Notes: generated by a model from the letters alone, not told the origin. Numbered from the stretch's first letter, positions 1 to 64,000 are shown. The stretch is DNA of 64,000 nucleotides from a virus (IMGVR_UViG_3300015360_000002:796-64795), one strand, 5' to 3'. Made by a program: numbers and translations.

Positions 1-1949
1 CGGATTCCGCTGAGACTACGGGGATGAAGTGGGCGGCTGCGGGAGCAGTCGGCGTCGCTACGGATACCCTCTGGGATGCCAAGGGAGACCTCGCAGGAGG
101 TACGGGGTCGAATACGGCTGATCGCCTCGCAGTTGGAACGAACGGGCAAGCCTTGATTGCCGATTCGGCCGAAACGACCGGAATGAAGTGGGCAACGGTC
201 GCAGGGACCGGAGACGTAGTCGGTCCGGCCTCCTCGACGAATGCGCGTCTGGCTCTCTTCGATCTGGCGACAGGCAAACTTATCAAGCAGTCCACGGCGC
301 TCACCGAATCAGGAGGAACTATCACCTCCAATACTTCGATTGGATTGGCTGCAGGCGGATCGAATCAAAGCATTACTCTGACCCCAACAGGGACCGGGAT
401 CAACGTCCTGACCGGGGGTGTCCAAACAGGCACCGCCTCCTCGGCTGTCCTCGGGGCGTCTTACAGTATCTACACCACAACGAGCTCGCCCGCGAGCGTC
501 GGATTGCGACACGCAAGCGCAGACTCGGGTTCGGCCTATCAGCTTTTTAGTAAGAGTCGGGGGAGTATTGCTAGTCCCACTGCGGTTCAAAGTTCCGACG
601 AACTCGGCGGAATTTTTTTCGGTGGCCACGACGGCACAGGACAGGCGGATTCACAGGCGGCGATTCAGGCGCTCGCGACGCAGACATGGACTTCAGGGGC
701 GAGAGGGACGCAGCTCAAATTACGCACAACGGCCAACAGCGACACGACACTGACGGACCGAGTGATTATCCATCAAGATGGATTAGTGCAGGTGGGCGCT
801 GGCTCTCCTGGAACGCAGTTCACGACTTCAAGCCCTCGTCTCATGATCGCGAGGGAAGCGGCGAGTACCACTCAACAATTCGCGATCGCCTCGGCGACGT
901 CGACGAACCGCGGAATTATTCAATTTTTCAAAACCCGCGGGACACTGGCGACCCCGACCGCCGTAACTACGGGTGATTCTATTTTCTCGATCTTAGCGGG
1001 CGGAAGCGATGGGACGAACGTCGAGCAGAGCGCAGAAATCGCTGGCTTTATCGACGGGACAGTCTCAGGCGGAGTGGTCCCGGCGCGTTTGGAGTTTCTA
1101 ACAAGCGCCACCAATTCGTTGGGCAAAGCGATCCGACTCACCGTAAAAAGTACCGGTCAAATTCAGATGCCAGCAAATCTCGCATCGACCACCACGACCA
1201 CAGGGACACTGATCGTCACGGGGGGCGTGGGAATCAGCGAAAACCTTTACGTCGGGGGGTCGATCGTTCCCACGTCGACGATCACCTTCCCCGACGGCGT
1301 TCGGCAAACATTCAACCCCAACGGAACCACCCCGGGCCTAAACATCGGCGCTCACACCACTGATCCATCCGGCCTCACCAATGGGGATCTCTGGTACGAC
1401 AGCACGGGGAATTTGCTCCGAGCCCGCATCAACGGGGCCTCAGTGAGTCTTGGGGCAGGCGGCGGTGGCGGGACGCTCACACTGGATCGGTTCAACGCTC
1501 TGGACAATCAACCGCCCGCGACAAACTTCGCGAGCTTCGACACCCGGAATTCAGTCGCCGTTTTGGCGTTTGATGCGGCCACAGCAGAAGGAGCAGTCTT
1601 CGTTTCAAACATGTCCGAAGCGGCGAGTTTCAGCACGGGAATATCCGTCATCATCCGCTGGATCGCGGCGACGGCAACTACAGGGGATACTGTTTGGACT
1701 TCCGCATTTGAGCGGTCGAATACCGACTTGGACACCGACTCTTTTGCAACCGCGGTCTCCGCCACTACGACCACCAACGGAACGTCGGGCATCATCACCA
1801 CGACCACGATCAACCACACGGGGTCTGAAATGGATGGTCTTGTTGCGGGGGAACCTTTCCGATTGAACGTCAAACGGGATGCTGCGGTCGGCGGTGATAC
1901 CATGGCTGGCGACGCACAACTTGTCTCCCTTGAACTCCGCCAACGATGA
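1..1949 (+). CDS. Tail fibre / receptor-binding protein, C-terminal part (5'-truncated by window edge)
   Basis: Open from the window start. G/T/A/S-rich fibre motifs (WDAKGDL, GDVVGPASST, SRGS.ASPTAV / TRGT.ATPTAV duplicated domain, GTLIVTGGVGI). DSAETTGMKWA occurs twice. Probably the continuation of 63134..64000. Confidence 0.8.
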   Translation, partial: DSAETTGMKWAAAGAVGVATDTLWDAKGDLAGGTGSNTADRLAVGTNGQALIADSAETTGMKWATVAGTGDVVGPASSTNARLALFDLATGKLIKQSTALTESGGTITSNTSIGLAAGGSNQSITLTPTGTGINVLTGGVQTGTASSAVLGASYSIYTTTSSPASVGLRHASADSGSAYQLFSKSRGSIASPTAVQSSDELGGIFFGGHDGTGQADSQAAIQALATQTWTSGARGTQLKLRTTANSDTTLTDRVIIHQDGLVQVGAGSPGTQFTTSSPRLMIAREAASTTQQFAIASATSTNRGIIQFFKTRGTLATPTAVTTGDSIFSILAGGSDGTNVEQSAEIAGFIDGTVSGGVVPARLEFLTSATNSLGKAIRLTVKSTGQIQMPANLASTTTTTGTLIVTGGVGISENLYVGGSIVPTSTITFPDGVRQTFNPNGTTPGLNIGAHTTDPSGLTNGDLWYDSTGNLLRARINGASVSLGAGGGGGTLTLDRFNALDNQPPATNFASFDTRNSVAVLAFDAATAEGAVFVSNMSEAASFSTGISVIIRWIAATATTGDTVWTSAFERSNTDLDTDSFATAVSATTTTNGTSGIITTTTINHTGSEMDGLVAGEPFRLNVKRDAAVGGDTMAGDAQLVSLELRQR

Positions 1950-2623
1950 AAACTCTTCGATTTATACTTCTCCTCACGGTTCTGACGGGTGCCCTCCAAG
2001 CAGCACGCACTTTCCCCAATGACCTAACAAAGTACATCCAGCTTAATACGACCCCGGTCACAACTGCCCCGATGACTTTTTCCGCTTGGGTTAAATTCAG
2101 TTCCACCGTAACGGGTCAAATACTCTTTATGGTGGCCGAAAGCACCGTTAACGCCCATGCCCTTTGGCTAGGTACAACGACCAACGCCTTGGAGGCCGGT
2201 GAATGGGATGGTGGCCCCGTCGCAAGGGCTCAATCCGGCACGATTTCAACGGGGGTCTGGTATCATGCGGGAGGCGTCTTTACCAGCCTCAGCTCTCGCG
2301 CTGTTTTTCTTGATGGGGTGAAAACGACAAACACGACAACGATCGGAAGTGTTCACACCCCCGGGAAGGTTGTCGTAGGCCGATGGGATGGCGCGGGTTC
2401 GGCTCTTCAGGGAGACCTCGCTGAAATCGCGATTTGGAACGTGGCTTTAACAGACGCCGAAATGTCGACGCTCGCGACCGGAGTTAGTGCGTTACGGGTT
2501 CGTCCAAGTGCGCTCGTTTTATATATCCCTTTATGGGATTCGGTCTTCGATTATAAGGCGAGCCGAGCTATAACTACGAACACCACGACCACAACCGTTT
2601 CTGGACCTCGCAGATACCGATGA
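1946..2623 (+). CDS. LamG/concanavalin-A-like lectin protein with Sec signal peptide
   Basis: MKTLRFILLLTVLTGALQA|A signal peptide. TFSAWVK, WYHAGGVF, VFLDG, GDLAEIAIWNVALT are LamG_3-type motifs. Confidence 0.8.
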   Translation: MKTLRFILLLTVLTGALQAARTFPNDLTKYIQLNTTPVTTAPMTFSAWVKFSSTVTGQILFMVAESTVNAHALWLGTTTNALEAGEWDGGPVARAQSGTISTGVWYHAGGVFTSLSSRAVFLDGVKTTNTTTIGSVHTPGKVVVGRWDGAGSALQGDLAEIAIWNVALTDAEMSTLATGVSALRVRPSALVLYIPLWDSVFDYKASRAITTNTTTTTVSGPRRYR

Positions 2624-2686: not shown

Positions 2687-2968
2687 ATGGCAATTATCAA
2701 GAAATTGGCTAACTGGCGAAATTGGCTTAGAGGTCTTTTGGCTGCCGCAATTGGAGGAGCGGCGAACGCGACCACGTTGATGGTAGTCGACCCTCTACAA
2801 TTCAACTTCAATACGGGAATGAGCGCGCTCTGGAAGGTATCCTTGGTTTCGGCGGTTCTCAATGCGGCGTTTTACCTGAAGCAGAGTCCGATCCCTCCGT
2901 CCGAAGAAGAGGATGATGCATTGCAACCTGATGCTACTTTCACGCCTTCAAAAGATAAAACGCCATGA
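2687..2968 (+). CDS. Putative holin
   Basis: 93 aa, two hydrophobic segments, basic N-terminus, charged C-terminus, late-gene context. Confidence 0.55.
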   Translation: MAIIKKLANWRNWLRGLLAAAIGGAANATTLMVVDPLQFNFNTGMSALWKVSLVSAVLNAAFYLKQSPIPPSEEEDDALQPDATFTPSKDKTP

Positions 2969-3345
2969 GGTATCTCGTTTTTCTTGCATTGGTGCTGAGC
3001 GGCGCCCTCCTTGCGGCCCCGCCTCCATTCACGACGGACCTACCTGCTGAACTCGTAGGCAAAACGGATCTTTGGTTGGCAAGGCTTGAGCCATCTCCAG
3101 GAGACCCAGAGGGCGGGCTCTACATGGTTCAACGCAGATTCCTGGGTCGCTACTCCGACGCACGGGCGCGGGGCTACCCTTGGTCATGGGCTCCACTGCC
3201 TGCTGTCTTTGATGCCTTTGACCGCTCTACGCAGCCCCCGTCCGATCTCGAAATTAAAGCCGAGCGCGCAGAGAGCGAACGCCTGCGGGCGCGCATCAGA
3301 GCCGCCGTTTCAATACTTCAACCTCCAGTCAATGTTGCACCATGA
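2965..3345 (+). CDS. Secreted hypothetical protein
   Basis: MRYLVFLALVLSGALLA|A signal peptide. ATGA-coupled to the upstream gene. Confidence 0.6.
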   Translation: MRYLVFLALVLSGALLAAPPPFTTDLPAELVGKTDLWLARLEPSPGDPEGGLYMVQRRFLGRYSDARARGYPWSWAPLPAVFDAFDRSTQPPSDLEIKAERAESERLRARIRAAVSILQPPVNVAP

Positions 3346-3629
3346 ATACGTCCATCCGCATCCTCTTCGCCCTCGTGTGCATCTCGCTCTCAGCGTGCAG
3401 TACCGTATACGACCGGCTTGATGCATCTATCCCAAATGGCGAGGCGCGAAAACTCCGCGCTACTATCACCGGCAAATTTTCTTCAACGACCATTGAGGCC
3501 GATGGGTTTAAGAAAACTGCAAGCGAAGTAACCGCAGAGCGGATGTACGAGCGCCACAACAATGCCTGGGTTCCACTCATCGAAATCGAGATCGAGGGCT
3601 ATCGCAGAAGCAGGGGGGATAAAAAATGA
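3342..3629 (+). CDS. Lipoprotein, possible o-spanin
   Basis: Lipobox-like ISLSA|C after a hydrophobic stretch. Adjacent to the holin-like gene. Confidence 0.55.
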   Translation: MNTSIRILFALVCISLSACSTVYDRLDASIPNGEARKLRATITGKFSSTTIEADGFKKTASEVTAERMYERHNNAWVPLIEIEIEGYRRSRGDKK

Positions 3630-3946
3630 CCGAACCTGATAAAAACGAACTCATCCGATGGATTGACGTGCTGTTCAAGTTGGGCACGCCGGTCATTATT
3701 GTTCTCTCGTCGTTCATCATCTACTGGCTTCAAGCGCACTATGTTCCGATCGAGACTTTCGGGCAAAATTCGGAGCGTCTATCGAAACTTGAGACCGCCT
3801 TCATGCTGATGACGAAAGAAAATGAGGTGAACAATCGACAGGAAAAGAGTTTGGCTGACCACGAAACGCGCATTCGTGTGCTGGAAGAAAAATCTCCGCG
3901 TGGAGGCCATTATCCCAACACCAGTGGTGTCGGAATAAGTAAGTAG
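3626..3946 (+). CDS. Membrane-anchored coiled-coil protein (i-spanin/holin-like)
   Basis: One N-terminal TM segment, then a coiled coil ending DHETRIRVLE. Confidence 0.5.
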   Translation: MTEPDKNELIRWIDVLFKLGTPVIIVLSSFIIYWLQAHYVPIETFGQNSERLSKLETAFMLMTKENEVNNRQEKSLADHETRIRVLEEKSPRGGHYPNTSGVGISK

Positions 3947-15150: not shown

Positions 15151-15155
15151 ACCAC

Positions 15156-30994: not shown

Positions 30995-31022
30995 CTTTGC
31001 TCCCGCAAAAACAACACCATGA
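30219..31022 (+). CDS. C5 methyltransferase beta chain, overprinted in the +1 frame
   Basis: Carries WPAPT / WATPT TRD-like segments and motif IX LNPAHSRWLMGFP. Same layout as M.EcoHK31I. Confidence 0.75.
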   Translation: MSTQLYLQSLINAISSPALVAGRSRSASQDGPMTSLSGLAPVRASLSQSPENTQAKTTRGTFGLNSSDSSPSDSLQRSLENRLRARLDVSGSLEYVLTWKRWDMQSLPPICALRARAHLTSGKDYTGWPAPTVGNATGSQSAKGASPTGRREDGSKATVSLSAVARLAGWATPTVQDSKNNAGPSQFRRNSLPLNCEATLGVTSISSLAQTAKRGGLNPAHSRWLMGFPPAWCDCAVTAMQSFPKSPLSSSKRSSKPADFAPAKTTP

Positions 31023-39131: not shown

Positions 39132-39931
39132 AACCGTCAAAATTAGATGCGGTGATTTGTTGCGACTTGATTCGTGGAGTTTACTCCGCGTTTGAAGCAT
39201 GGGAACAGTCCGGCCGGCCCAGAGAGGGAAGTTTTGAATGGAAGGACTGTTTGATTTGGGGGGAGTCGATGAGCTACGAGCGCAGGCCGGGGCCGCGTGA
39301 GCGGCACCATTGGGTCAGGGAGTGGTCACCAATGGGCACGTGCCTGTTGATTGGGAAAACGTTGTACGTGGTTTTCCGGGGAACATGCACCGCGCATGAG
39401 TGGAACAACAACGTCCGGTTTCCGCTGCGATCGTTTCGGGTGCCGATTGGAGCGGATGTGAATTTGTTGGCACCGCGCGAGTATTACATGGGCAACGTCC
39501 ATGACGGATTTGCGGACTCAATGGAATCACTTCAGCAGGATCTTATCGCAGAGGTGAAGCGCCTGATACCGGGAGCAGAGAGGGTGATTGTCACAGGGCA
39601 TTCATTGGGGGGTGCGATCGGAACGCTCGCGTTTGCGTCGATCCTGGCGCGGTTGCCGATTGCGAGAATGACGACGGGGATGGTGTTTGGCTCGCCGAGG
39701 GTCGGGAACCAGGAGTTCAAGCGTGCATTTTACACCGTGGGGAATCCTGAGACGTTCTGGAGATACGAGTTGATGCACGATCCGGTCGTGGATGTGCCAC
39801 CCAGGAAGATAATGTGGGTTTGGGAATACAATCACGTGGGCGAGCAGATTCTCCTGACGGAGCAGTTCGGGAGCGATCGGAAGAATCACGCGATCGAGAG
39901 CTATCGGACGGCAATCATGAACCTGCCATAG
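39128..39931 (+). CDS. Class 3 lipase (alpha/beta hydrolase)
   Basis: VVFRGT, VHDGF, VTGHSLGGA nucleophile elbow, FGSPRVGN, DPV..VP, YNHVG, C-terminal H. Confidence 0.9.
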   Translation: MKPSKLDAVICCDLIRGVYSAFEAWEQSGRPREGSFEWKDCLIWGESMSYERRPGPRERHHWVREWSPMGTCLLIGKTLYVVFRGTCTAHEWNNNVRFPLRSFRVPIGADVNLLAPREYYMGNVHDGFADSMESLQQDLIAEVKRLIPGAERVIVTGHSLGGAIGTLAFASILARLPIARMTTGMVFGSPRVGNQEFKRAFYTVGNPETFWRYELMHDPVVDVPPRKIMWVWEYNHVGEQILLTEQFGSDRKNHAIESYRTAIMNLP

Positions 39932-39933
39932 AT

Positions 39934-39941
39934 TGCAACCG
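39934..39941 (+). promoter_or_regulatory. Putative late-promoter motif TGCAACCG
   Basis: Starts 42 nt upstream of the terL ATG (39976). Confidence 0.65.
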
Positions 39942-39975
39942 GGATGTGATTGATTGGTTTCGGAAGGATCAAGGA

Positions 39976-47501: not shown

Positions 47502-47942
47502 ATGAGCATGTCCAACGCGGCGGAAGCCGCTCTCCTCGATCTTTTATTCCTGAACGCTGCCTGGGGCAACGTCGGTGATGCCTCGGGTCTTCAGCCAAGC
47601 GGCGCGGCGGGCTCTTTCTACGTTTCCTTGCACACGGCCGACCCCGGCGAAGCGGGTACGCAGGCGACGAACGAAGCCGCTTACACCGGGTACGGCCGTG
47701 TGGCAGTTGCCCGAACTGCGGGAGGATTTGTCCGTTCGGTCAGCACGGTGAGTAATGTTGCGACAATCCAGTTCGACGAATGCACGGCTGGTTCGGCCAC
47801 CATCACCCATTTCTCGATTGGCCTGGCGTCGTCAGGTGCAGGCATGATCGGAGTGTCGGGTACGCTGACCACCTCTCGCTCGATCTCAGCCGGCATCACC
47901 CCGCTGTTCAACGCAGGCACGCTTTCGGCGACGGTCGATTAA
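47502..47942 (+). CDS. Virion fibre/decoration protein
   Basis: YVSLHTADPGEAG...EAAYTGY.RVAV, ITHFSIG motif common in phage structural cassettes. Confidence 0.7.
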   Translation: MSMSNAAEAALLDLLFLNAAWGNVGDASGLQPSGAAGSFYVSLHTADPGEAGTQATNEAAYTGYGRVAVARTAGGFVRSVSTVSNVATIQFDECTAGSATITHFSIGLASSGAGMIGVSGTLTTSRSISAGITPLFNAGTLSATVD

Positions 47943-50557: not shown

Positions 50558-50805
50558 GCCCGCGCGCAATAGCCACCCAAGGTCTCGGATTCGGGACGCT
50601 CTACGTCGCCGTCCTCGGACTCTTGCCATTGGCGCAGCCGGTCGAACCGGCGCCATCCATCGTCAGAAGTGGTCTTCAGGTAATGCAACCCACCATCCGC
50701 GGAACGGATGATCCAGAGTTGCACCAGTACCTCCAAAACGCGGCGGAAGAGGAGGAGATTCTTGTGATTCTACACTGCATCAGCGCATTCACTGACATCC
50801 GATGA
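50554..50805 (+). CDS. Hypothetical protein
   Basis: AIATQG start and EEEEIL end, coupled at both ends. Confidence 0.55.
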   Translation: MSPRAIATQGLGFGTLYVAVLGLLPLAQPVEPAPSIVRSGLQVMQPTIRGTDDPELHQYLQNAAEEEEILVILHCISAFTDIR

Positions 50806-53800: not shown

Positions 53801-56800
53801 TGACCCGACATATAAGCCGGACCTCCCGAGAAGCGTCATTGAGAACTCCCTTTCTCACGCCCAACTGGAAAATGTAGTTTACGCGGGACAAGCGCATCAG
53901 AAATTTGCGCCCACTGGCGAGCGGCGTGGATACTTCATTGGCGACGGCACTGGTGTAGGCAAAGGCCGGCAGATTGCGGCGATCATCCTTGATAACCTTC
54001 GCCAAGGACGAAAAAAGGCAGTCTGGGTCTCAAAGTCCTCAAATCTCATTGCCGATGCCAAGCGGGACATGGCCGACACGGGATTGGACCCAGAGAGGAT
54101 TCACCTGTTCAACAAGGTTGCAAAATCTGGACGAGGAGGAATTACCATGCCGGGAGGGACTGGCATTGTATTTTCGACGTACCAAACACTTTCAGGAGAT
54201 AACTCAGGATTCAACGCGGATGGAGAATTGATCGAGGGGCTGAAGAAGAGTCGCATTCAACAACTGGTTGATTGGCTGGGCAAAGACTTCGATGGCGTTA
54301 TCGCGTTCGATGAAGCCCACCAAGCCGGCAATTCGATCACGATGAAGAGCGATCGCGGCAAGAAGGGAGCATCACTGATGGGTATGGCGGTTGTCGATCT
54401 TCAGAGGGCACTGCCCAAGGCTCGTGTGGTTTACGTGTCGGCCACAGGCGCCACTGAGGTATCGAATCTCGCCTACGCGGAACGGTTGGGCATTTGGGGA
54501 CCAGGTACACCATTTCCGAACAAGCTGAAATTCATTCAGGAGATGGCCGCTGGAGGGGTTAGCGCGATGGAGATTATCGCTCGCGACCTCAAGGCACTGG
54601 GATCGTACCTCGCTCGAACCCTCAGTTTCAGGGGCATTCAGTATGATCGAGTTGAGCAGACATTAACGACCGATCAACGCACCAACTACGATAAAATCGC
54701 CGAAGGGTGGCAGACTGTTTTCCAAAATATGGACCAAGCGATGACCGTTTCTGGTGCATCGCAAAATCAGCAGGCGAGGAGAAACGCGCGTGGAAAGTTC
54801 TTTGGTTCTCAGCAGCGGTTTTTCAACCAATTGCTGACCGCGATGACGATGCCCGCGGTAATCAAGGACGCAAAGAAGCACATCGAGGACGGAAAATCGG
54901 TCGTCTTTCAGCTTACCAACACGAACAAGGCGGGCCTCGACCGCGAGCTGGCTCGCTTGGACGAAGAAGAAAGCGACAGTCTCGACAGTCTCGATCTCTC
55001 CCCGAAGGACATACTTCTTCAGTACGTCGCCAACTCATTCCCGACGGCAAAATGGGTAGAGGTAGCGGACGAGAATGGCGAGCCTGGCACCACGAAGTGG
55101 ATCATTCTGAAAGACAATGAAGGGAACATCATCGAAGACCCGGAAGCGGTTGAGTTGAAAAATAAAACACTGAACTCGATCGCGGATCTTCAAATGCCCG
55201 AGAACCCAATTGAGATGATCCTCAATACGTTCGGCTCAGAGAACGTCGCCGAAATCACGGGTCGCGACTCTCGCGTTGTGCGTAAAACCACCGACGAAGG
55301 CGCGATCAAGCTCGTGCTCGAAAAGGGGCGATCGGACAGGACCGCACAGGTTGAGGCGCAGGATTTTCAAGATGGGAAACGACGCCTTTTGATTTTCTCG
55401 GGCAAGGGCGGAACCGGTTTCTCGTACCATGCCAGCCGAAAAGCCAAGAATCAGCAGCAGCGAATTCACTATCTCGTGCAGGCCGGATGGAGGGCCGACA
55501 TGGCGCTTCAGGGGTTTGGCCGAACACATCGCAGCGACCAAGCGCATACCCCAATCTACAAATTGGCCATGACGGACCTTCAAGGCCATAAACGGTTTGT
55601 CAGTTCCGTTGCGCGCCGCCTGGAGCAACTTGGGGCACTCACTACCGGCGATCGTCAAACAGCAACCAAGGGAATGTTTTCGGAGAAGGACAACCTCGAA
55701 AGTGAGTACGCTGAAAACGCGGTCGAATCACTTTTCGTGCGGCTCTATAGTAACAAACTCCCGAACTTTAACTTCGGCACCATCACCAAAAAAATGGGTT
55801 TCGGTCAAACCATTGGTGGGGAGTGGGTGAACTCCCTCATGGACCCCAAAACTGGTTCCATTAATCTCTCCAAGATTCCGACCGTTCAGCAATTCCTGAA
55901 TCGCATTCTTTCGCTTCCATTCGAGGAACAGAACGGCCTGTTCGACGTGTTTACGAGAATCTTGGAGCAGTCGATCGAAATGGCGAAGGAGCGCGGGACA
56001 TTCGACCCTGGAATGCAGTCCTACAAGGCCGACACCATCGAAATTAAATCCGATGAAGTCGTTTGGGAAGATCCAAACTCAAGCGCAAAAACTAGGATCG
56101 TAGACATTGAGACCACAGACCCCGTGAGGTTCCGATCACTCGAATCTGTTCAGCAATGGGCCATCACTGATCCGATCGTGAAATACGTTCAGAATAACCA
56201 GAGTAAGCGCGTCTATGCGCTGGCGGAGGCACACCCGAGAACCAATCAAGATGGAACAATCGAGCCTGTTTTTAGGCGCTCTGGTGTGCGGGAAGGGTCA
56301 GACTATATCCCTGAAAAAGAATTCAATGCATCGAAGTACAAAACGCTTCAATCAAGTGAAGTTCTGGCACTTTGGAACGAGGAAATCAGGACTGCCGACA
56401 AAATTCACCGAACCAACGCCAATTTCATCGTTGGGTCGTTCCTCCCGATTTGGGACCGAATCAAAATTGCATCACCAAAAATCTATCGGTTCACGGTGAA
56501 TAAGGGCGAAAAAAATGGTCAGCAAGTCCTCGGTGCCCTGATTCCGCCCCAGTCACTCGCTGGAGTTCGCAAGCGCCTCTCGGCGAAGAGTGGTTCCGTG
56601 ACGCCGGAAAGTGCTTTCAATAGCCTGATGAACGATGGCAAATCAATCCGGCTCGCGAACAATTGGTTCATCTTTCGTGTGCGCCTTTCCGGAGAATATC
56701 GCATCGAGGTGAGCGACATGAACTACGCAGAGGCAAATGAGTTCGTGAAGTTTATCGGTGGATACTCTGAACGAATCCAATACCGCGAACGATATTTCAT

Positions 56801-59800
56801 TTCCTCGAACCCCAAAACGGGCGTTGAGGTCATGACGAGAGTGCTTGCGAAGAGCCCGATCGTTGAAGGCGAAGAGTTTGGTGCGCCCGGCGAGGAGACT
56901 GCGCCATTGCCATCGTCCACAATCCTAAAGCCTGCGCCCGTGGAAGGCCACGATGGTTTCTTCTATCGCTCCGAGTCTGACTCCCTCCGTGCTTTGGGGT
57001 TTGGAGTGGTCCGGCAAATTTACGAGCGGCGCCCGCAAGCGACCGATCAAGAGCTGGCGCTTGGAATTCTAAGTGTTACAGACGAAGACAAGGCCACGCG
57101 ACTGGCACTCGACCCAAACGAGAATGGAGTGCCTGGATCAGTCAAAACGATCCTCTACGGTGAGTTGATGACTCGCCAAGCAGCGATCATTGCCAACGCA
57201 GACTCGACTCCATTGGCACGAGCCAAAGCCACGCGCCGCCTCCAGCAGATGGACAACGTGAAGGCACCGCAGTTCACGGAGAAGGGTCAGGAAATCAGCG
57301 CACTCCAGCAGGTTTACAAGAACGCCTCCGCCGGTGGTATCGCCCAGTACCTGCACGAAAAAAAGAAGGAGCAGGAGCGTGCGCTCGGCGGCGAGAAGGG
57401 GATGGACGACATCAAAGCGGCCGCTGACGAGCTCAACGAGGTCAACAAGCAGTCGATCGAGGAAGCGACCAAGGCCATGAACAAGGCTCTGCGCGCGATG
57501 CCTCTCACGAAGGGACTTTGGAAGAAATACAAGGATTGGGCCGCGCAACGGGTGTTCGACTGGCTGGACGGAGTTACGTCCCCGCCGAAGGAGCTCGCTG
57601 AGCTCGACCGCTTCACGCGTGAGATTGTCGCCGAAGTGAAGAGCCGGATGAAGGCCGAATTGGGCGACGCGCTCAAACAGCCGAAGCAACCCGAGCGAAG
57701 CCCGTCGGACATCCTCCGTGATGCGATCCTGAACAAGGAGAAGTACAAAGAGGCGTTCGACACAGTTCTAAGAAAGCTCGAAAACAAGCTCGGCGACACC
57801 CATCCGATCGTCATGCAGGCGCATCAGATCCTCGGTGCCATGGGTGTGAAGCCATGGAGCAAGCACGTCCTCGACAAGGCCATAAAAGAGGCGCACGAGG
57901 CAATGGGCTTGAACGTCCGAGAAATCGCGAAGATGCACTACACGAACGCAGATCGCCTTCACCGCGACCTCGCCGACACGCTCTCGGACATTGCTGGAAT
58001 TCCCCAGGCGATGGCCAATGACTTGGCTGACGACTTCGCGAAGCGAATGCAGGAATTGACCATCCAGGCGAAGAAGAAGGCGATTCTTTCGATCATCCAG
58101 CGGCAAAACTCCACGGCCAAGACGCGCGAAAAGATGACGGCGATCGAGCGCGCAGTCCTCCTGAATAACTACGGAGCCATGAGCGTGCCCGAGCTCGCGG
58201 ACCTCGTCGCGAAAGAGCTCAAGCTGCCGCGGGTGAGTACCGAGCAGATGCAGGAAATCGCCCGCATCGGCAATCGCATCGAGACAGCGACCAACATGGC
58301 CGACAAGGCGCGCGCGGAGCTCGACATGCTTCGCACACTCCGGATCGCGCGCGGTTTCACCCGGATGGACGTCAACACGTCGATTTGGTACGCAAATTTG
58401 CTCTCGGGATATACCACTCAGGTCGCGAATGTCGTGGGCAACATGATGACCGGAACGCTGCAACTGGCGACGATCATGGCGACCACTCCGAAGTATGCGG
58501 GCGAGACGTTCCGCGGATGGATCAACGGATTTGGCGAAGGCTGGGCGCAGGGCGCGGCGATCATGAAAACCGGGCGCGGTTCGCGGGAATTCGACACCAA
58601 CAAGGCCGGCGAGGCCGGCAACATCCTGGAACTCGTGGACTTCAATCGGGACTTCCCTGACATGAATGAGCGTTGGGCAAACGCGCGCCAGAAGCACACG
58701 AAGGCTTTGCGGTACGTCACGCGCATGATGAAGGCGGTTGACTCGGTCTTCTATTACCCGGCCCGAGAAGCGTTCGCCAGAGTCGCAGTCGCGAAGCTCA
58801 TTGAGGGTCAGTACCAAGGCAAAGAGCTCATCGACAAGGTTCGCGAAATCCTCGCGATCTCGCCGGACCAATTCGTGAACGCCCGCAAGCGTGCCGAAGC
58901 CGAAGGGTTCACTGGCATCGACCTCGTTCTGCGCACTTCTAATATCATCGAGGAGGCTCGCCGGAAAACCCCGGAGGGCGCTCGGGCGGCGGATGACAGC
59001 GAACAGTTTGCTCTCGAATCCACGTTCAACAATGAGCCAGTCGGATGGGCGGGTATCCTGTACCAGCATCTCGTTCCTCTCACCCAAAGTATTGCCCCCG
59101 GTGGCGTACCGATTTTGCGGGTGTTCCTGCCTTTCCTGCGGGTTCCGACGAATCTGTTCAATGCGTCGCTGAACTTCACTCCGGTTGGAGCCATGCGCGC
59201 CGTCCGTGGAATGCCCACCGAGGCCAAGCGCACGGAAGATGGGAAATACCATATCGAGCGAAAAGAATTCACGGCTGACGAGCGGAAGCGCCTCTACGCC
59301 CAAGCCGTCGGTGGAACTCTTCTCATGGCCGGGCTGGCCGCGCTGGCGCTGACTGGCGGGGACGATGACAAAGAGCGGTGGTTCGACATCACTTCGACCG
59401 GCCCCGATGACTTCAAGAAACGGCAGCAACTTGAGGCGACCGGCTGGCGCCCCCATTCCATCAAGATGGGTGACACGTGGGTGTCCTACAAAGACTCTCC
59501 CCTCCTGTTGGCCCTCGCGGTCACCGGGCATGTCGTGGACGCGGTTCGCTACAGCAAACAGAACGACGAGCTCGCACTTGGCAGCAAGGTTTTCAATGCC
59601 CTCCTGACGGCCCCGCGCGCCATCATGGAGACGTCCATGCTGTCGGGCTTGGGCCAACTCATGGAGTACGCATCGGGCCGCGCGACGGCAAAGCAACTGG
59701 TATCCTTCCTCACCCGGACGGTTAGCAGTGTTGTCGTCCCGAACCTCCTCCAGCAGGTTGACCGGCAGTTTTCGCCAGCGATCAGGGATCCGAATGGGCC

Positions 59801-60191
59801 CCTTGGATCCGTGGGCGCCACCCTCCCGTTTGTTCGGCGGGCCGGCGACGTGAAAACTGACGTCCTGGGAGAAACCGTGGAGCGGAACCCGTTGGCTCGG
59901 TTTGGAGGCATCGAATCCAATGATCCGCTGCGTAAGCTCCTGCGGGACAACAACATCTTCATCTCAACCCCAGGTCGTGACACAAAGCTCGGGAATGGCC
60001 CGATGGATGAGTCCACGTACCGAGAATACGTCAAGATCTCAGGCGAACGCATTCAGCAGCGGTTGGGCCAGAACGTCGAGGTTCTTCGTCGGCAACCCAA
60101 GGAGAACGTGGAACGTATCGTTGACCGCATTACGCGGGAAGAGCGGGAGAGGGCCAAGAACATGCTCCGAGGGCGCGCAGGAGCCAACTAA
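50802..60191 (+). CDS. Giant DarB-like polyvalent virion protein: amino-MTase + strawberry-notch SF2 helicase + LPD38-like C-terminus
   Basis: QQFSTPP, LEPSAGVGGL, VMNPPFS (MTase); GDGTGVGKGRQ, DEAH, SATGA, QGFGRTHRSDQ (helicase); FLPFLRVPTN and hydrophobic helices at the C-terminus. Confidence 0.88.
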   Translation: MTFNALERCLKNAGKAFSPKEANLLRRLAEQYAQDGANALVASQKAVKSIAVVYKANLEKLNAHYEEMGAVMPVRTGSPTKLSENYAPPEKGKRARWSVGLTPDGNEDLLSVIEQLGGIRVPSATRNSGGELNGFAETFNTGMARLLRRTNATASTVDQLLGELPSYGYTFDTPDQLYSAVLKAMETRRKVHKNQKTQAYENAFDEAFLGNEQKKPMLRAGKPVTIDDLGVGDSFEVNGEKFTVKNVDEDGNVTIKDGITRTIPPDTVVYPDRGEVKPAKRDATFAPTPPKNEPDPRFGPRKAVQPDLIPEGDIEMTLDGGTQADPAYLLKQKEEQEAAKKKLEDDQIKIPEAENTPKRNPLLPNRDSVLPDVNQPKDTPASPAPAGVKKPSRFGGKRPSAETQKLGDDIFGAPAENTSNEKYGKKFGTNLAKANQFVDTIVRDFPDVTSREMLAAYIEEFFPNAKPYSEALFRNLGSAIDVDETGGIDSWDSFYTPADETPSTQPPPTPPPAPLPKSGTIAERSLEAAKLIEARINTNPAEMTWRELFALTDQAFGGTQADGTYTVKDAYDALETAVNRYILVRLPMPVDGSVPTALNYIQELNTLLSRIPTQTKRSQEQDRMQQFSTPPPLSFVANWVANLNENDIYLEPSAGVGGLAVFAKSIDVGAIIANELSMARSSILNLSDIPDVVITENAEVLHAIVNNKIARGDLLRPTVVVMNPPFSNSTAGVLGDTMVGARHIMEALKILPPGGRLVAIVGEGMAMDKPTFRVWWKDLGTKYNVRANIHVDGKNYTKYGTSFGVQLVVIDKPLANEVVGVVNPIVAEVDLIEQLPNLLEGIRNDRKPIKLEKPETPADKPSGGKPPTGNRPKLDAPRGPTSPRTGDGGSPRGGSPAANGGAANQNPSVPTASTPPLGDVPDAGRPDGGDAGGRSVTDSGRASSEQPAGVDPADADSAPQGNEDDEVYSDYTPTKVASDGSQKHPTPLVESAAMASVAPPDPTYKPDLPRSVIENSLSHAQLENVVYAGQAHQKFAPTGERRGYFIGDGTGVGKGRQIAAIILDNLRQGRKKAVWVSKSSNLIADAKRDMADTGLDPERIHLFNKVAKSGRGGITMPGGTGIVFSTYQTLSGDNSGFNADGELIEGLKKSRIQQLVDWLGKDFDGVIAFDEAHQAGNSITMKSDRGKKGASLMGMAVVDLQRALPKARVVYVSATGATEVSNLAYAERLGIWGPGTPFPNKLKFIQEMAAGGVSAMEIIARDLKALGSYLARTLSFRGIQYDRVEQTLTTDQRTNYDKIAEGWQTVFQNMDQAMTVSGASQNQQARRNARGKFFGSQQRFFNQLLTAMTMPAVIKDAKKHIEDGKSVVFQLTNTNKAGLDRELARLDEEESDSLDSLDLSPKDILLQYVANSFPTAKWVEVADENGEPGTTKWIILKDNEGNIIEDPEAVELKNKTLNSIADLQMPENPIEMILNTFGSENVAEITGRDSRVVRKTTDEGAIKLVLEKGRSDRTAQVEAQDFQDGKRRLLIFSGKGGTGFSYHASRKAKNQQQRIHYLVQAGWRADMALQGFGRTHRSDQAHTPIYKLAMTDLQGHKRFVSSVARRLEQLGALTTGDRQTATKGMFSEKDNLESEYAENAVESLFVRLYSNKLPNFNFGTITKKMGFGQTIGGEWVNSLMDPKTGSINLSKIPTVQQFLNRILSLPFEEQNGLFDVFTRILEQSIEMAKERGTFDPGMQSYKADTIEIKSDEVVWEDPNSSAKTRIVDIETTDPVRFRSLESVQQWAITDPIVKYVQNNQSKRVYALAEAHPRTNQDGTIEPVFRRSGVREGSDYIPEKEFNASKYKTLQSSEVLALWNEEIRTADKIHRTNANFIVGSFLPIWDRIKIASPKIYRFTVNKGEKNGQQVLGALIPPQSLAGVRKRLSAKSGSVTPESAFNSLMNDGKSIRLANNWFIFRVRLSGEYRIEVSDMNYAEANEFVKFIGGYSERIQYRERYFISSNPKTGVEVMTRVLAKSPIVEGEEFGAPGEETAPLPSSTILKPAPVEGHDGFFYRSESDSLRALGFGVVRQIYERRPQATDQELALGILSVTDEDKATRLALDPNENGVPGSVKTILYGELMTRQAAIIANADSTPLARAKATRRLQQMDNVKAPQFTEKGQEISALQQVYKNASAGGIAQYLHEKKKEQERALGGEKGMDDIKAAADELNEVNKQSIEEATKAMNKALRAMPLTKGLWKKYKDWAAQRVFDWLDGVTSPPKELAELDRFTREIVAEVKSRMKAELGDALKQPKQPERSPSDILRDAILNKEKYKEAFDTVLRKLENKLGDTHPIVMQAHQILGAMGVKPWSKHVLDKAIKEAHEAMGLNVREIAKMHYTNADRLHRDLADTLSDIAGIPQAMANDLADDFAKRMQELTIQAKKKAILSIIQRQNSTAKTREKMTAIERAVLLNNYGAMSVPELADLVAKELKLPRVSTEQMQEIARIGNRIETATNMADKARAELDMLRTLRIARGFTRMDVNTSIWYANLLSGYTTQVANVVGNMMTGTLQLATIMATTPKYAGETFRGWINGFGEGWAQGAAIMKTGRGSREFDTNKAGEAGNILELVDFNRDFPDMNERWANARQKHTKALRYVTRMMKAVDSVFYYPAREAFARVAVAKLIEGQYQGKELIDKVREILAISPDQFVNARKRAEAEGFTGIDLVLRTSNIIEEARRKTPEGARAADDSEQFALESTFNNEPVGWAGILYQHLVPLTQSIAPGGVPILRVFLPFLRVPTNLFNASLNFTPVGAMRAVRGMPTEAKRTEDGKYHIERKEFTADERKRLYAQAVGGTLLMAGLAALALTGGDDDKERWFDITSTGPDDFKKRQQLEATGWRPHSIKMGDTWVSYKDSPLLLALAVTGHVVDAVRYSKQNDELALGSKVFNALLTAPRAIMETSMLSGLGQLMEYASGRATAKQLVSFLTRTVSSVVVPNLLQQVDRQFSPAIRDPNGPLGSVGATLPFVRRAGDVKTDVLGETVERNPLARFGGIESNDPLRKLLRDNNIFISTPGRDTKLGNGPMDESTYREYVKISGERIQQRLGQNVEVLRRQPKENVERIVDRITREERERAKNMLRGRAGAN
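53332..53652 (+). CDS. Nested overprinted ORF (+1 frame) in the MTase-helicase linker
   Basis: 106-aa helical-looking protein spanning the G/P/D-rich linker of the host frame almost exactly. Confidence 0.5.
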   Translation: MIANQSNLKSLKHRPINQAAANRLREIDPSWTPHEDLPVLELAMAVLPEEDPRLPTVVQQTRTPASQRQALRHLETYLTPDGLMAGTPEDAASLIADELQANNPLE

Positions 60192-60199
60192 TGCAACCG
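60192..60199 (+). promoter_or_regulatory. Putative late-promoter motif TGCAACCG
   Basis: Starts 42 nt upstream of the portal ATG (60234). Confidence 0.65.
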
Positions 60200-60233
60200 T
60201 CATCCATGCCCAGCACCACATCAGGTGTTGGTC

Positions 60234-62294
60234 ATGCGGCATCTCAGATTATCCCAAGAGCAGGAAACCAAGCTCGTTGAGTTCCTTAAGAAGCGACTCT
60301 TGGAGCTCGACGGGGACAACCGCGACCGCATTCGGGCGGACGAGACGTCGGATCTCGACTACCGCAATTCCAAAGAGTATCGGGCGAAGATCGGCACTGT
60401 CTTTGCCGAGAGCAACATGCCGGTCCCGCTCACCTCGTACGTGGTCGACCACTTTGCCGCCCGGACCGAGGAAGAGCTATTCGGGAGGGATCCAATGGCG
60501 AAGTTCGAGCCGGCCGGACCCTCCGACGTGGAAACCGCCCGCGGCTTGGACAGGTTCGCATCGTACAAGTTGTTCGAGCAGGGACGGGTAAAAAACGACC
60601 TCCTAGAGTCGCTTCACACGATTTTCCGCCATCGCGCCCAGTTCACAAAGGCGATCTACGAAGAAGACGTCGATTTCTGGGAGGAGCACGAGGTTATGAT
60701 TCTCCACGACGGACTGACCCAGCAGGCGGTCCTCATCATTGACCACGGCTATGTCATTGAGGGCCGGGACACGTGGATCGAAATGTTGCACCCCATCACC
60801 GGGTTTCCGGTTCAAATTCTTGAAGCCGACCCGACAGTCATCTTTGACCCGGCTCGTCACTACTATGCGCCGAGCCCTCTCCCGATCAAATTCCGGGACG
60901 TCGTCTACGCCGGTCCTCGCTCGCGCGAGGTCGATTCGGAGTGCATTCGGATCCCGAATGACGCCCGGTCGCTCAATGAGGCCGATGCGATCGCTGAATA
61001 CTACGACAAGCCGAGCCACTGGATTCGCCCGCGGTTCCTCAAGCGTGCGTGGATCGATTGGACGGTTTACGAACAACGGATTCGAGCAGAGACCGGTTCA
61101 CGGAAGACCAAGGATAAGCGGCGTGAGCAGTCCAAGGACGCGAAGGCGTTCGACTTGGACAACTCGTCTATCGGCATCGTGGAGGTCTGGCTGGAGCGGG
61201 ACGTCCTCGCATGGGGTACGCCGCAGCGAATCGTCGTCTGGATGGACCGCAAAACGGACGTCCTCATCGACTACGAATACCAAAAACTTGTGACTCCACA
61301 CGGGCGTCACCCGTACACCGCAACCGCGGTCGCGAAGACTGAGAGCTATTGGTGGGGATACAGCATCCCGGAAATGCTCAAGCCGTTCCAAGAGTACATC
61401 GACCTCCAGTGGAATCGGCACTCGTTCCGCAATTCGGTGAACGCCAATCCGATTCTCGGCCAAAACCCCGATGCGATCCAGGAGAAGAAATCGTTCTACG
61501 AGCTCCGTCCCTTCGACGTGATGACGTTCGAGCCGGGTAAGACGATGAAGGACTGGCTGGAGGCATTCGTTTTTCCGAACGCGGACCTCGACACACAAGA
61601 CCTCATCGACAAGGCGGTTTACTGGGTCAATTTCTGGTTGGGAATCTCGAACATCGCGCGCGGCGACTACTCGGACGTTCCCCAGAATACCACCCTTGGA
61701 GGACAGGAGGGTGCCCTGAAGGAGGCAAGCAAGCTATCCCGCCGTTGGACCCGGCGCGTCGTGACAGGCTTGGAGGACCATCTCACCAAGCTGGCTCAAA
61801 TTCTCCTGGTGACGATGAATCCGGAAGAAGCGTACACCTACCTTGAAGGAGAGGTGAAACAAATCGGATTCATGGCGCAGAACGCGGTGAAGAACCTGTT
61901 TGTGAACGCTAAGCTCACCGTCGGGAAGGACACGAGCACGCAGGCACTTCAGGAACAGCAGCTCACACTCCAAACGATCGAGAAGTACGTCATGTATCCT
62001 CCGCAGATTCAGCTCATTGTCCGCCCTGTCATGAAGCGGATTTTGTTCCTCCTCGGGCACGACGATGTCGAAGCACTGTTGCCGGTACCGATGATGCCGG
62101 CGATCGACCCCGTCACAGGCCAGCAGGTCATGGTTCCGATGACTCCGGGAATGGCGCCTCCTCCGAACGCGCTGCCAAACAGCGAGCAGCAGATCCCTGG
62201 CACGCCGCCTACCGGCGAAACTCCAACTGACGACTCGTCCGCCCCGGCCCCAGAAAACGAAGCATCCTCCGAGCCTCCCCCCGTAAATGGCTAA
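60234..62294 (+). CDS. Portal protein
   Basis: ~690 aa, F.P.GPSD...A, VEVW, HPY......WGYSI.E.L...Q, G.S....G...T..G, P/Q-rich tail (podovirus-type portal). Confidence 0.8.
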   Translation: MRHLRLSQEQETKLVEFLKKRLLELDGDNRDRIRADETSDLDYRNSKEYRAKIGTVFAESNMPVPLTSYVVDHFAARTEEELFGRDPMAKFEPAGPSDVETARGLDRFASYKLFEQGRVKNDLLESLHTIFRHRAQFTKAIYEEDVDFWEEHEVMILHDGLTQQAVLIIDHGYVIEGRDTWIEMLHPITGFPVQILEADPTVIFDPARHYYAPSPLPIKFRDVVYAGPRSREVDSECIRIPNDARSLNEADAIAEYYDKPSHWIRPRFLKRAWIDWTVYEQRIRAETGSRKTKDKRREQSKDAKAFDLDNSSIGIVEVWLERDVLAWGTPQRIVVWMDRKTDVLIDYEYQKLVTPHGRHPYTATAVAKTESYWWGYSIPEMLKPFQEYIDLQWNRHSFRNSVNANPILGQNPDAIQEKKSFYELRPFDVMTFEPGKTMKDWLEAFVFPNADLDTQDLIDKAVYWVNFWLGISNIARGDYSDVPQNTTLGGQEGALKEASKLSRRWTRRVVTGLEDHLTKLAQILLVTMNPEEAYTYLEGEVKQIGFMAQNAVKNLFVNAKLTVGKDTSTQALQEQQLTLQTIEKYVMYPPQIQLIVRPVMKRILFLLGHDDVEALLPVPMMPAIDPVTGQQVMVPMTPGMAPPPNALPNSEQQIPGTPPTGETPTDDSSAPAPENEASSEPPPVNG

Positions 62295-62559
62295 CCCCGT
62301 CCATCCGGTCACTGCCAAGAACGCATTGGAGTCGCTCGCCGGTCAGACCGGCTGGGATATGTACTGCGCGCGCGTGGACGAGCTCGTGGAAATCGAAATC
62401 AACGCGAAGATTTTTGATTCACGGACATCGGACCAAGAACGGAGAGACTTGGTCAACGCCAGGCTCCTCCTCGTGAGGCACTATTCACCAGAGAGAATCC
62501 GTCAGTCGCTCATGGCAAAGTTCAACTCCGAGATCATCAAGCTGAATGCGAAGAAATAG
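62287..62559 (+). CDS. Small portal-adjacent protein
   Basis: L....GW motif, overlaps the portal stop. Confidence 0.6.
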   Translation: MANPVHPVTAKNALESLAGQTGWDMYCARVDELVEIEINAKIFDSRTSDQERRDLVNARLLLVRHYSPERIRQSLMAKFNSEIIKLNAKK

Positions 62560-62564
62560 ATCAT

Positions 62565-62572
62565 TGCAACCG
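62565..62572 (+). promoter_or_regulatory. Putative late-promoter motif TGCAACCG
   Basis: Intergenic, upstream of 62650 and the signal-peptide fibre gene. Confidence 0.6.
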
Positions 62573-62649
62573 TGACCTCGCCCGAAGCGTGGAGCTCCTC
62601 GGGGATGTTAAGGATGTTAACTGCACAGTAACCACACAAACACACGACC

Positions 62650-63111
62650 ATGGCCTCGACCATACTCGCAAAAAAACCGACTCCCGGTGCTCTCAAAATC
62701 TACGCGTTGATCCGCAAGTTCGACGCTCTTCGCTACCTGCCGAAACTCGCATACGGAATTCTCCAAATGGATTCGGCTGGCTCCCTCATCGCCACCGATC
62801 AACCAACCGTCGCTGGTCTCGTTGGTACCGTCCAGCGTCTTACCGGCGCGGGCGCCGTCAACCTTACCACGCTGACGACTGCCCTGACTTCTACGGGCTC
62901 ATCTCAAGCTCTCACGCTAGCAGACGGAGTCGATGGCCAGCTCAAGACCATCGTTCACGACGTCGACGGCGGAAGCGCAATCCTGACTCCGACCACCAAG
63001 ACCGGATTCACCACGATGACGTTCACGAATGCCGGCGACACGATCTTCCTTCAGTATTTTACCACGCGAGGATGGATGATCGTCGGCAATCGAGGAGGTA
63101 CCGTCGGTTAA
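62650..63111 (+). CDS. Virion protein (fibre/decoration-like)
   Basis: ALTLADG.DGQ.K.I...DGG...LTP...TF..AGD...L...GW motif. Confidence 0.65.
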   Translation: MASTILAKKPTPGALKIYALIRKFDALRYLPKLAYGILQMDSAGSLIATDQPTVAGLVGTVQRLTGAGAVNLTTLTTALTSTGSSQALTLADGVDGQLKTIVHDVDGGSAILTPTTKTGFTTMTFTNAGDTIFLQYFTTRGWMIVGNRGGTVG

Positions 63112-63133
63112 CCTCAGACCGCATTCCTGCCCA

Positions 63134-64000
63134 ATGAAATCGCTCCATTTCCTTCTCCTCCTTCTGACTCCGCTTGTGGTCTTTGGCGCTGCCAATGACG
63201 TCAAGATCACGCAACGGAAAGCAGATAACTCTGGATTTACGGAGCGAACATTTGCGCCTGGGGCAAACGGGCTCTTCGGCTTCGATGCGAGCAAGTTGCC
63301 GGCGCCGATCACGGTAGCGGGAGGGTTGAGCTTGTCCGGAGGTGTCCTGACTGGCTCCTCTGGCTCGATCACGAGCATCGCCCTCTCGCTACCAAATATC
63401 TTTAGCGTCTCCGGATCGCCCGTCACCACCACGGGAACGTTCACGGCAACGCTGGCCAACCAGACTGCGAATCGGATCTTCGCTGGCCCAACGACGGGTA
63501 GCCCTGCCGCTCCAACGTTCCGCGCGATGGTCGCTGGGGATTTCCCCGACCTCTCCGCGGTTTATCAGCCATTCAACTCGACGTTGAGCACTGTATCAGG
63601 GGGCACATACGCTGGCGACGACTCCATTGTCACGGTCGGCACAATCGCAACAGGCACTTGGAATGCCTCAGTGATTGGATCAACCAAAGGCGGTGCCGGT
63701 ACGGTCAATGGCATCCTGAAGGCGAACGGATCGGGCACGGTCGCCGCGGCGGTTGCTGGAACCGACTACCTCGCGCCCGCCGCGATCGGGGTAACCGTTC
63801 AGGCATACGACGCTGATCTCGACACGTTCGCGACGAAGACGGCACCGGCTGGTGCAGTCGTCGGCACAACCGACACCCAGACGCTGACCAACAAGACGAT
63901 TGTAGGTTCTCAGGTCACGGGCGCCTACACGGCCTCCGGGTTGACGATGGCGACCGCGAGAATCCTTGGACGCACGACGGCAAGCACCGGCGCTGCGGAG
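63134..64000 (+). CDS. Tail fibre protein with Sec signal peptide (3'-truncated, absent from ORF track)
   Basis: Hand translation, 289 codons with no stop: MKSLHFLLLLLTPLVVFG|AANDV..., FSVSGSPVTTTGTF, QTAN.IFAGPT.G..AAPTFR, VGTIATGTWNA, GTTDTQTLTNKT. Confidence 0.85.
   Translation, partial: MKSLHFLLLLLTPLVVFGAANDVKITQRKADNSGFTERTFAPGANGLFGFDASKLPAPITVAGGLSLSGGVLTGSSGSITSIALSLPNIFSVSGSPVTTTGTFTATLANQTANRIFAGPTTGSPAAPTFRAMVAGDFPDLSAVYQPFNSTLSTVSGGTYAGDDSIVTVGTIATGTWNASVIGSTKGGAGTVNGILKANGSGTVAAAVAGTDYLAPAAIGVTVQAYDADLDTFATKTAPAGAVVGTTDTQTLTNKTIVGSQVTGAYTASGLTMATARILGRTTASTGAAE

Follow-up and report, generated by a model that had tools for sequence, protein, structure and literature searches.

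The tail fibres of tailed phages are commonly held to be folded and joined to the particle in the cytoplasm, and the open-access literature searched yielded no description of such a fibre with a Sec signal. The 64,000-nt stretch of viral DNA investigated here (IMGVR_UViG_3300015360_000002, bases 796-64795 of a 64,795-bp virus record; referred to as the window, with positions counted from its first base) raises the question of whether this holds for every such fibre: an open reading frame (ORF) starting at position 63134 encodes a protein with phage-fibre repeats that opens with a putative Sec signal peptide, and the adjacent downstream gene, which codes for a LamG-like lectin, opens with another. 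Functional export of both proteins is probable (at roughly 0.8); in this reading, a widespread cassette of two genes, for a tip-domain protein and a LamG, would have acquired Sec-type signals at the native N-termini of its products. The elements of fibre and lectin are:

63134..64000, plus strand: 5' part of the fibre gene (codons 1-289), ATG start, ORF open at its 3' end where the window ends; 721 homologues of its repeats.
1..1949, plus strand: 3' part of the fibre gene, frame 3, stop codon at 1947-1949.
63134..63193, plus strand: fibre signal peptide, n-region MK, h-region SLHFLLLLLTPLVV, predicted cleavage at VFG-AA or GAA-ND.
318..821, plus strand: segment of the stalk with homology to Bd1334, a MAT fibre of Bdellovibrio (8on4_A, E 4.7e-8; 8oml_A, E 6.9e-6).
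1440..1946, plus strand: C-terminal tip domain, jelly-roll with CBM-like fold (AlphaFold2, predicted local distance difference test (pLDDT) 73.8; Foldseek), predicted LamG contacts at about 1500-1574.
1946..2623, plus strand: LamG/ConA-like lectin (LamG225; PF13385), signal at 1946-2002, start overlapping the fibre stop codon (ATGA).

The fibre N-terminus, MKSLHFLLLLLTPLVVFGAANDVK, has a positive charge in its n-region, a hydrophobic core free of charges, and small residues at positions -3 and -1, and an in-frame stop codon 54 nt 5' of the ATG makes a longer N-terminus impossible. Signals were ranked with a home-made and crude scorer that evaluates the n-, h- and c-regions together with the -3/-1 rule; the type I architecture of Sec signals (positive n-region, uncharged h-region of 7-15 residues, small residues at -3/-1) was recognised by this scorer in the fibre (score 4.27) as well as in the LamG (score 3.38; MKTLR, followed by FILLLTVLTGAL and cleavage at LQA-AR). 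Scores of at least 3.8 were reached by 17/688 ORFs from 69 related loci versus 1/688 reversed-sequence controls, while 10/688 of these controls reached 2.8 or carried a lipobox. Within the genome itself, seven of 70 crude ORF calls were flagged as signal-bearing, five of them genuine-looking (fibre, LamG225, the small downstream proteins SP126 and Lipo95, and an fn3 protein at 31019-31462).

The only internal start within the first 30 fibre codons is a GTG at codon 15, which reads GCG in the closest relative (IMG/VR contig L086). Eight of 12 signal-bearing genes (the LamG of the window, the L086 fibre, and both genes of L160, L200 and L180) possess no in-frame ATG, GTG or TTG in codons 2-30; the other four (the fibre of the window, the L086 LamG, and LamG and fibre of L211) have internal starts, none at a common position. 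Because of the upstream stop codon and the lack of a conserved internal start, the fibre signal cannot be skipped in translation, and dual targeting via an alternative start, with a cytoplasmic isoform as its product, was rejected as unsupported.

The nearest fibre homologue, P0002, is 77% identical over the whole 289-aa N-terminal piece and begins with MKKLCFILSLLPLVVFG followed by AAND, and P0121, a member of the P0002 cluster, begins with MKSLRLILLLLPLALFG followed by AAND. The latter sits in L086, whose portal is 89% identical to that of the window and whose gene order is the same (portal, p90, p153, fibre, LamG). Relative to that of the window, the signal-encoding DNA of L086 shows a 3-nt indel that leaves the frame intact and substitutions that preserve hydrophobicity, with the mature start AAND(V/I)KITQRKAD retained; the signal of P0002 is likewise altered in sequence and of the same form. 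Thus, judged from these relatives, the fibre signal peptide is conserved in form, not in sequence. The claim of the sequence-only reading that the ORF opens with a clear n/h/c signal peptide is thereby borne out, in terms of sequence, by the score, the upstream stop codon and the conserved form.

As to the identity of the protein, homology of its repeats to 721 proteins, including typical phage-type fibres without signal, and its location between portal and scaffold/major capsid protein characterise it, by sequence and gene order, as a phage tail fibre. About 55 aa lie between the N-terminus and the repeats; for the N-terminal 75 aa alone, the P0002 cluster was the sole match, and the N-terminal piece gave three weak repeat matches in GenBank phages and nothing else. 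No fibre or LamG paralogue without signal was found in this genome. A motif [KR][ILV][TS][GQE] within the first 18 residues, picked by eye and after the fact and hence a lead only, occurs in 8/35 predicted mature exported proteins, 4/98 signal-less proteins and 12/2651 background windows.

As the record was assembled from a metagenome and the fibre gene runs across its junction, one may suspect that the signal is an artefact, i.e. the result of a mis-called start, of an assembly chimera at the junction, or of the recent capture of a host adhesin gene along with its signal. Such an origin is very improbable. The record ends share an exact 107-bp direct terminal repeat, which closes the genome to a circle of 64,688 bp (57.6% G+C), and the frame is open across the junction, so that the wrap-round considered by the sequence-only reading proved correct: read round the circle, the fibre ORF extends from 63134 to window position 1949 and encodes 1167 aa, with 688 nt falling outside the window. 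Of the words sampled from window 62300-64000, 86% occur in a second run, and one of the contigs of this run, which covers 62560-63786, shows no base difference in the signal region; this agreement between the contigs of two DNA runs is uninformative on function. Furthermore, in L086, a linear contig, this gene is present without interruption. Capture of a host gene is not supported either: the repeat region was detected in 2/201 sampled genomes of the presumed host order and the tip in 0/201 genomes of the order and 0/401 of the phylum, and the one host-order repeat match inspected (L156) is a prophage-type fibre without signal.

The second signal-bearing protein passes the gathering score of Laminin_G_3 (PF13385; E 8.2e-18, 65.4 bits versus 27.6) and possesses a C-terminal tail at about 2456-2620 (residues 171-225), whose conserved motif VRPxSLVxYxPL...HPRxY is common to signal-less cassettes. 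Signal-less LamGs start with MARNF, MARSF, MARGF, MSRSF or MAY(D/E)F, in general with MARxFNG or MAYxFNG (alignment A7). In the same alignment, the signal-bearing ones read ...LQA-ARTF, ...GQA-GRSF, ...AFA-ARTF, ...LQA-ARNF and ...VMG-ARSF, i.e. A or G before the predicted cleavage site and (A/G)RxF after it. The LamG signals thus form a 17-19-aa extension ahead of the native start, and since the predicted -1 residue aligns with the initiator methionine of the signal-less forms, cleavage would give the same N-terminus as that of the cytoplasmic forms after methionine trimming. According to this alignment, the signal is grafted exactly onto the native N-terminus of the LamG.

The tip domain, which comprises the last about 170 aa of the fibre, is widespread, occurring in 3634 representative clusters (with an E-value of 1e-30 or better in 406), yet neither the tip nor the LamG, in exported or signal-less form, has a match in 50,697 GenBank phage records (tblastn), so that no member of the cassette has been studied so far. 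In IMG/VR, 127 of 309 pattern matches encode the tip domain; among the best 80 loci, which were kept, 73 have a LamG-like gene (about 210 aa) directly downstream of the tip gene. The signal-less cassettes (IMG/VR L161-L238) have the tip (44-59% identical in the best segment), the directly following LamG of about 210 aa and its tail in common with the exported cassette, differing in that their proteins begin at the predicted cleavage point of the latter and are presumably cytoplasmic. Many phages (IMG/VR L186-L238) encode the tip alone, as a protein of 161-242 aa that starts with MIATPILASG... or MIASNILQNG..., with the LamG as the next gene; since the tip occurs alone together with the LamG, the pair looks like a self-contained distal module fitting different stalks.

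The 5' end is complete in 77 of the 80 loci, nine of which were flagged by the scorer. Five fibre signals are convincing (score of at least 3.88: L159, which lies on the same contig as L086, L160, L180, L200 and L211), and four flags are weak (score of at most 2.62: L166, L167, L176 and L183). A LamG signal is present in exactly the five convincing loci (a further flag, L178, starts with MAYNF and is a false positive; Fisher p 4.6e-7 for the co-occurrence of fibre and LamG signals). In the survey of homologues that the sequence-only reading had asked for, the signal is kept with changed sequence in relatives, and most copies of the cassette (all but 5 of the 77 with a complete 5' end) carry no convincing signal.

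In a tree of the LamGs (72 rows), the five signal-bearing ones form one group, with one change and a Shimodaira-Hasegawa-like support of 95. They are 20-43% identical to the LamG of the window, and the signal sequences themselves are unrelated; a single clade at this level of identity points to one old gain, retained through deep divergence. The signal-bearing cassette is present on at least three backbones: that of the phage's own family (L086, L160, L200), that of L180 (a 33.5-kb contig with the cassette among other large ORFs that lack a match to proteins of the window phage) and that of L211 (a 67-kb contig). In every backbone examined, the cassette lies inside structural or tail modules. 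On the tree of the tip domain (214 rows), the signal state is clustered: the 35 signal rows require 20 changes compared with a shuffled mean of 32.9, and none of 500 shuffles was as low.

Exported fibre homologues of other kinds exist at the same locus of more distant relatives. They were observed in L098/L088 (portal 52% identical; L098 14524-20017) and in L153 (35%; 13491-16388), the L098 fibre being followed by an 821-aa signal-bearing protein without known family. In unrelated 45-kb phages (L158 9787-13955; L157 9899-13090), a signal-less fibre is directly followed by an exported one, the mature end of which starts with AAPPTTGQFLFQQK (subfamily P0009, P0011, P0017, P0023). Signal-like starts were detected in 11/96 large proteins of the portal-to-scaffold module of 68 loci and in 21 of the 120 best repeat homologues.

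Several points weigh against the reading as a whole. The Fisher p overstates independence, because the co-occurrence reflects one event inherited as a linked cassette; L180 and L211 form long branches on the LamG tree; and the tip tree needs at least five signal-state changes on supported branches, which suggests that tips were exchanged or some starts mis-called. Judged from this tree, the signal state, or the tip itself, is exchangeable. Moreover, the call of export comes from a home-made scorer and comparative logic, and there are no cysteines in fibre, LamG, SP126 or the fn3 protein (SP147), so that disulfide formation is not the reason for export of fibre and LamG, and disulfide-dependent folding was rejected as an explanation.

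The hydrophobic N-terminus might not serve Sec export at all, but be a transient membrane tether on the cytoplasmic face, an assembly helix or a tolerated segment of a cytoplasmic protein. Cytoplasmic folding is indeed the norm of the cassette, since 72/77 IMG/VR tip proteins carry no convincing signal, and on the tip tree the signal state seems able to change. Nevertheless, two different proteins exhibit the same n/h/c architecture with small residues at -3/-1, exactly at the native N-terminus; this architecture was kept at 20-43% identity of the mature parts; and reversed sequences gave one false positive in 688 at the score level of the fibre. According to the positive-inside rule, a positive n-region stays inside and the C-terminus is sent outward, and the positive n-region and uncharged h-region of the fibre would point its C-terminus in this direction. 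A cytoplasmic protein of this kind is in consequence distinctly unlikely, and export of fibre and LamG the better supported reading.

Structural models bear on the function of the two proteins as a pair. The tip model resembles CBM6/16/36/61 and the Eph ligand-binding domain (Foldseek, modest TM-scores of 0.28-0.43 by query length). The complex of three tip copies (residues 40-228 of a 228-aa query) and the mature LamG was modelled with a score of 0.90 in each of three runs, the best of three controls scoring 0.49; the runs share at least 92% of contacts, with a partner pLDDT of at least 89. In the calibration of the score, the mark was reached by 58/80 solved complexes and 2/110 mismatched pairs; the present model was built on small alignments of our own, a setup that differs from the calibration. 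In the model, the LamG tail (residues 171-225) touches the most conserved face (residues 80-104) of all three tip copies, a docking that would explain the strong conservation of the tip. It is fairly likely that fibre and LamG form a complex, with a predicted stoichiometry of 3:1 and the LamG tail capping the tip trimer; the tip may be the docking platform and the LamG the variable adhesin.

This arrangement recalls, in its architecture, the T4-type fibres: in phage S16, the trimeric gp37 tip is reportedly capped by a single adhesin, gp38, encoded by the next gene (3:1). The T4-type distal fibre and gp38 are not known to have signal peptides and are assembled in the cytoplasm.

The genes surrounding the cassette indicate when it would be expressed. 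The elements of the operon, apart from the cassette itself, are:

62565..62572, plus strand: TGCAACCG motif, 85 nt upstream of p153; the operon from p153 to TM106 probably has its regulatory start here.
62650..63111, plus strand: p153, first gene of the operon, no signal peptide, C-terminal half beta-rich; homologues in L086, L097 and L098.
2687..2968, plus strand: TM93, two segments of weak hydrophobicity, charged tail; resembles a holin in its features only.
2965..3345, plus strand: SP126, proline-rich, with signal peptide; homologue (46% identity) after the cassette in L200.
3342..3629, plus strand: Lipo95, lipoprotein with lipobox LSA-C, possible outer-membrane spanin by features only.
3626..3946, plus strand: TM106, last gene of the operon, N-terminal membrane anchor and coiled-coil-like tail, possible inner-membrane spanin by features.

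The TGCAACCG motif has seven matches in the window (1745, 3954, 31306, 39934, 41797, 60192 and 62565), all on the plus strand, versus 2.7 expected, and two of 100 shuffles reach seven. Five of the matches lie 33-85 nt upstream of starts (scaffold, terL at an internal ATG, p377, portal and p153), and the motif often directly follows a stop codon (TAATGCAACCGT at 41797 and 60192). L086 contains just two exact copies, at the syntenic intergenic sites 3942 (before the portal) and 6310 (before p153). The motif is regarded as a candidate late regulatory element; a scan of 60000-64000 for sigma-70-type promoters gave no site. The statement of the sequence-only reading that the fibre block lies behind the same motif as portal, terL and scaffold holds for the copy at 62565, with positions kept in L086, and co-regulation of the fibre operon with the head genes would be plausible. 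The terL ORF as called (39814-41796) probably starts too early: the motif at 39934 falls within this ORF, with an internal ATG some 50 nt further on. A near-identical strain from a second metagenome (run X2) is missing 9 bases at 62603, in the stretch from the motif to p153, and carries a few substitutions in p153 and the fibre repeats.

The operon is bounded by the motif copies at 62565 and 3954. p153 ends 22 nt before the fibre start, and overlaps of 4 nt connect fibre and LamG, TM93 and SP126, SP126 and Lipo95, and Lipo95 and TM106; four small membrane or exported proteins (2687-3946) are translationally coupled to the cassette. p153 was considered as a docking adaptor and is possibly fibre-related; its AlphaFold2 model is poor (pLDDT 53), and its nearest clusters in the ESM Atlas consist of viral proteins of 160 aa (a lead only). 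TM93, SP126, Lipo95 and TM106 have no family match in Pfam, PHROGs or NCBIfam, and the ESM Atlas gave no usable match for SP126. Measured against the features of a lysis set (a holin with two membrane segments and charged C-terminus, an inner-membrane spanin with anchor and periplasmic coiled coil, an outer-membrane spanin as small lipoprotein, an endolysin nearby), TM93, Lipo95 and TM106 fit loosely. The order of Lipo95 before TM106 is unusual, Lipo95 is not rich in proline, and the ORFs that were scanned include no recognised endolysin.

Taken by these features, the genes after the LamG look like an ordinary envelope or lysis set, and for this reason they are no evidence for export of the fibre. 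The sequence-only reading had pointed to the signals of the following genes; LamG, SP126 and Lipo95 do score as exported, whereas SP126 and Lipo95 cannot be used as an argument for the fibre. Signal-bearing endolysins and lipoprotein spanins of the Rz1 type (the Rz1 of phage JC1 has a predicted lipoprotein signal, according to PMC9144972) are, as the fibre would be, late users of the host Sec system, and Lipo95 is probably similar to the Rz1 type; such lysis effectors are small, in contrast to a fibre of more than 1000 aa with a lectin partner. The fn3 protein SP147 (147 aa, 31019-31462), located among replication genes, has a strong signal peptide, and a homologue (40% identity) lies near the exported fibre-LamG cassette in L160.

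The operon, the shared TGCAACCG motif and the absence of a tyrosine integrase (PF00589 was not found in the phage genome; serine recombinases were not searched) fit late lytic expression better than lysogenic conversion, in agreement with the sequence-only reading.

Apart from the exported fibre, the phage encodes a second fibre-type protein:

47502..47942, plus strand: chain-fibre protein of the GP4 gp80 type, without signal peptide (PF23140, E 6.5e-20, 72.2 bits; PDB 8jou_a, E 1.8e-5).

The portal belongs to the SU10 family (PF23899, 49.1 bits versus a cut-off of 30), and terL, major capsid protein and scaffold were recognised in the genome. By its SU10-type portal and gp80-type chain-fibre protein, the phage is classified as a GP4/SU10-like podophage; it has these two features in common with Ralstonia podophage GP4 and coliphage SU10 without being a close relative of either. 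To our knowledge, no exported fibre is known for GP4. On this classification, the exported fibre is not the sole fibre candidate of the phage, the gp80-type protein representing another fibre system of the virion (for the role of gp80, see PMC13730344). The portal has no tblastn match, and hence no close relative, in the GenBank phage records and 64 homologues in metagenomes. Six matches were obtained in species-representative genomes, four of them in metagenome-assembled genomes labelled Opitutaceae, Opitutus, Opitutales or Verrucomicrobia, one labelled Gammaproteobacteria and one archaeon. On the weak basis of the four labels, the host is probably a verrucomicrobial diderm; the phage occurs in a microbial-mat type of sample.

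Directly before the portal, a 3129-aa protein (window 50802-60191) with a Sno-type helicase (AAA_34, E 2.6e-116; Helicase_C_4, E 2.2e-81) possesses a hydrophobic segment near residue 2835. It may be carried in the capsid and ejected at infection, like DarB of phage P1.

A parallel for an exported fibre of this kind exists outside phages. The stalk homology to Bd1334 (PDB 8OML/8ON4) spans about 90-170 residues, and the MAT fibres of Bdellovibrio bacteriovorus resemble the fibre of the window in being long and phage-fibre-like, with a signal peptide and variable lectin-like tips. According to PMC10769870, all 21 MATs carry a signal peptide and are displayed on the cell surface; their signal is followed by an anchor domain of about 130 aa that is rich in beta structure and conserved among them. 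Since MATs have a homologous stalk, Sec export and folding beyond the cytoplasm are feasible for fibres of this type. The MATs, however, are cellular genes of the predator that are displayed on its own surface, whereas the present fibre belongs to a phage structural operon and has a LamG cap, and the about 55 aa ahead of its repeats leave no room for the MAT anchor. Being phage-encoded and too short before the repeats, it is not a MAT by this comparison, for which the MAT N-domain is taken from its description.

This kinship raises the possibility that fibre and LamG are exported without ever becoming part of the virion, and act as a host-glycan binder, as a receptor mask (against superinfection or loss of progeny on debris) or as a cell-cell adhesin, released at lysis or reaching the cell surface in a way akin to MAT display. 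Besides the stalk homology to signal-bearing MATs, the lectin-like folds of both tip and LamG, the co-transcription with small envelope proteins that the operon suggests, and the second, signal-less fibre system of the virion would be in keeping with such a role. On the other hand, a 1167-aa stalk is costly for this purpose, known receptor blockers being small (as is reportedly the case for Llp of T5), it is not evident how the complex would cross the outer membrane, the genome contains no signal-less paralogue whose receptor could be masked, the signal-less cassette sits in the tail modules of many phages, and no integrase (PF00589) was found. A non-virion function is plausible, at odds well below even.

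The fate tentatively favoured, at somewhat less than even odds, is the arming of virions at lysis, for the reasons that the cassette lies in tail modules, that no signal-less copy exists in the genome, and that a long stalk pays where reach matters; a stalk of 1167 aa would be sensible for a reach-dependent fibre. Fibre and LamG would be exported late in infection from one operon with envelope or lysis proteins, and would fold and trimerise in the periplasm as a complex of three fibre chains and one LamG. The complex would remain a receptor-binding fibre of the virion and join GP4-like podovirus particles, assembled in the cytoplasm, only once holin lesions and lysis merge the two compartments. 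Three points speak against this scheme: the gp80-type protein gives the virion another, signal-less fibre system, so that it may not need the exported fibre; a docking partner on the virion was not identified, the N-terminal 75 aa matching the P0002 cluster alone and p153 giving a model of pLDDT 53; and the assignment of the host to Opitutales is weak, based on four of six contigs.

A complete fibre and its partner lectin that both carry export signals would run contrary to the view that fibres are assembled in the cytoplasm. If the fibre-LamG complex serves away from the virion, it would stand for a kind of exported adhesin that is new among phage products and related to the MATs of predatory bacteria. 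If it arms virions at lysis, this would be a new assembly route, a two-compartment pathway in which intracellular virions are deliberately unarmed, and would raise the question of what makes a lectin fibre harmful or impossible in the cytoplasm. It is conceivable, if well short of an even chance, that a clade of phages has moved the assembly of one fibre and its lectin cap to the periplasm and finishes its particles only in the few seconds from holin triggering to rupture of the envelope.

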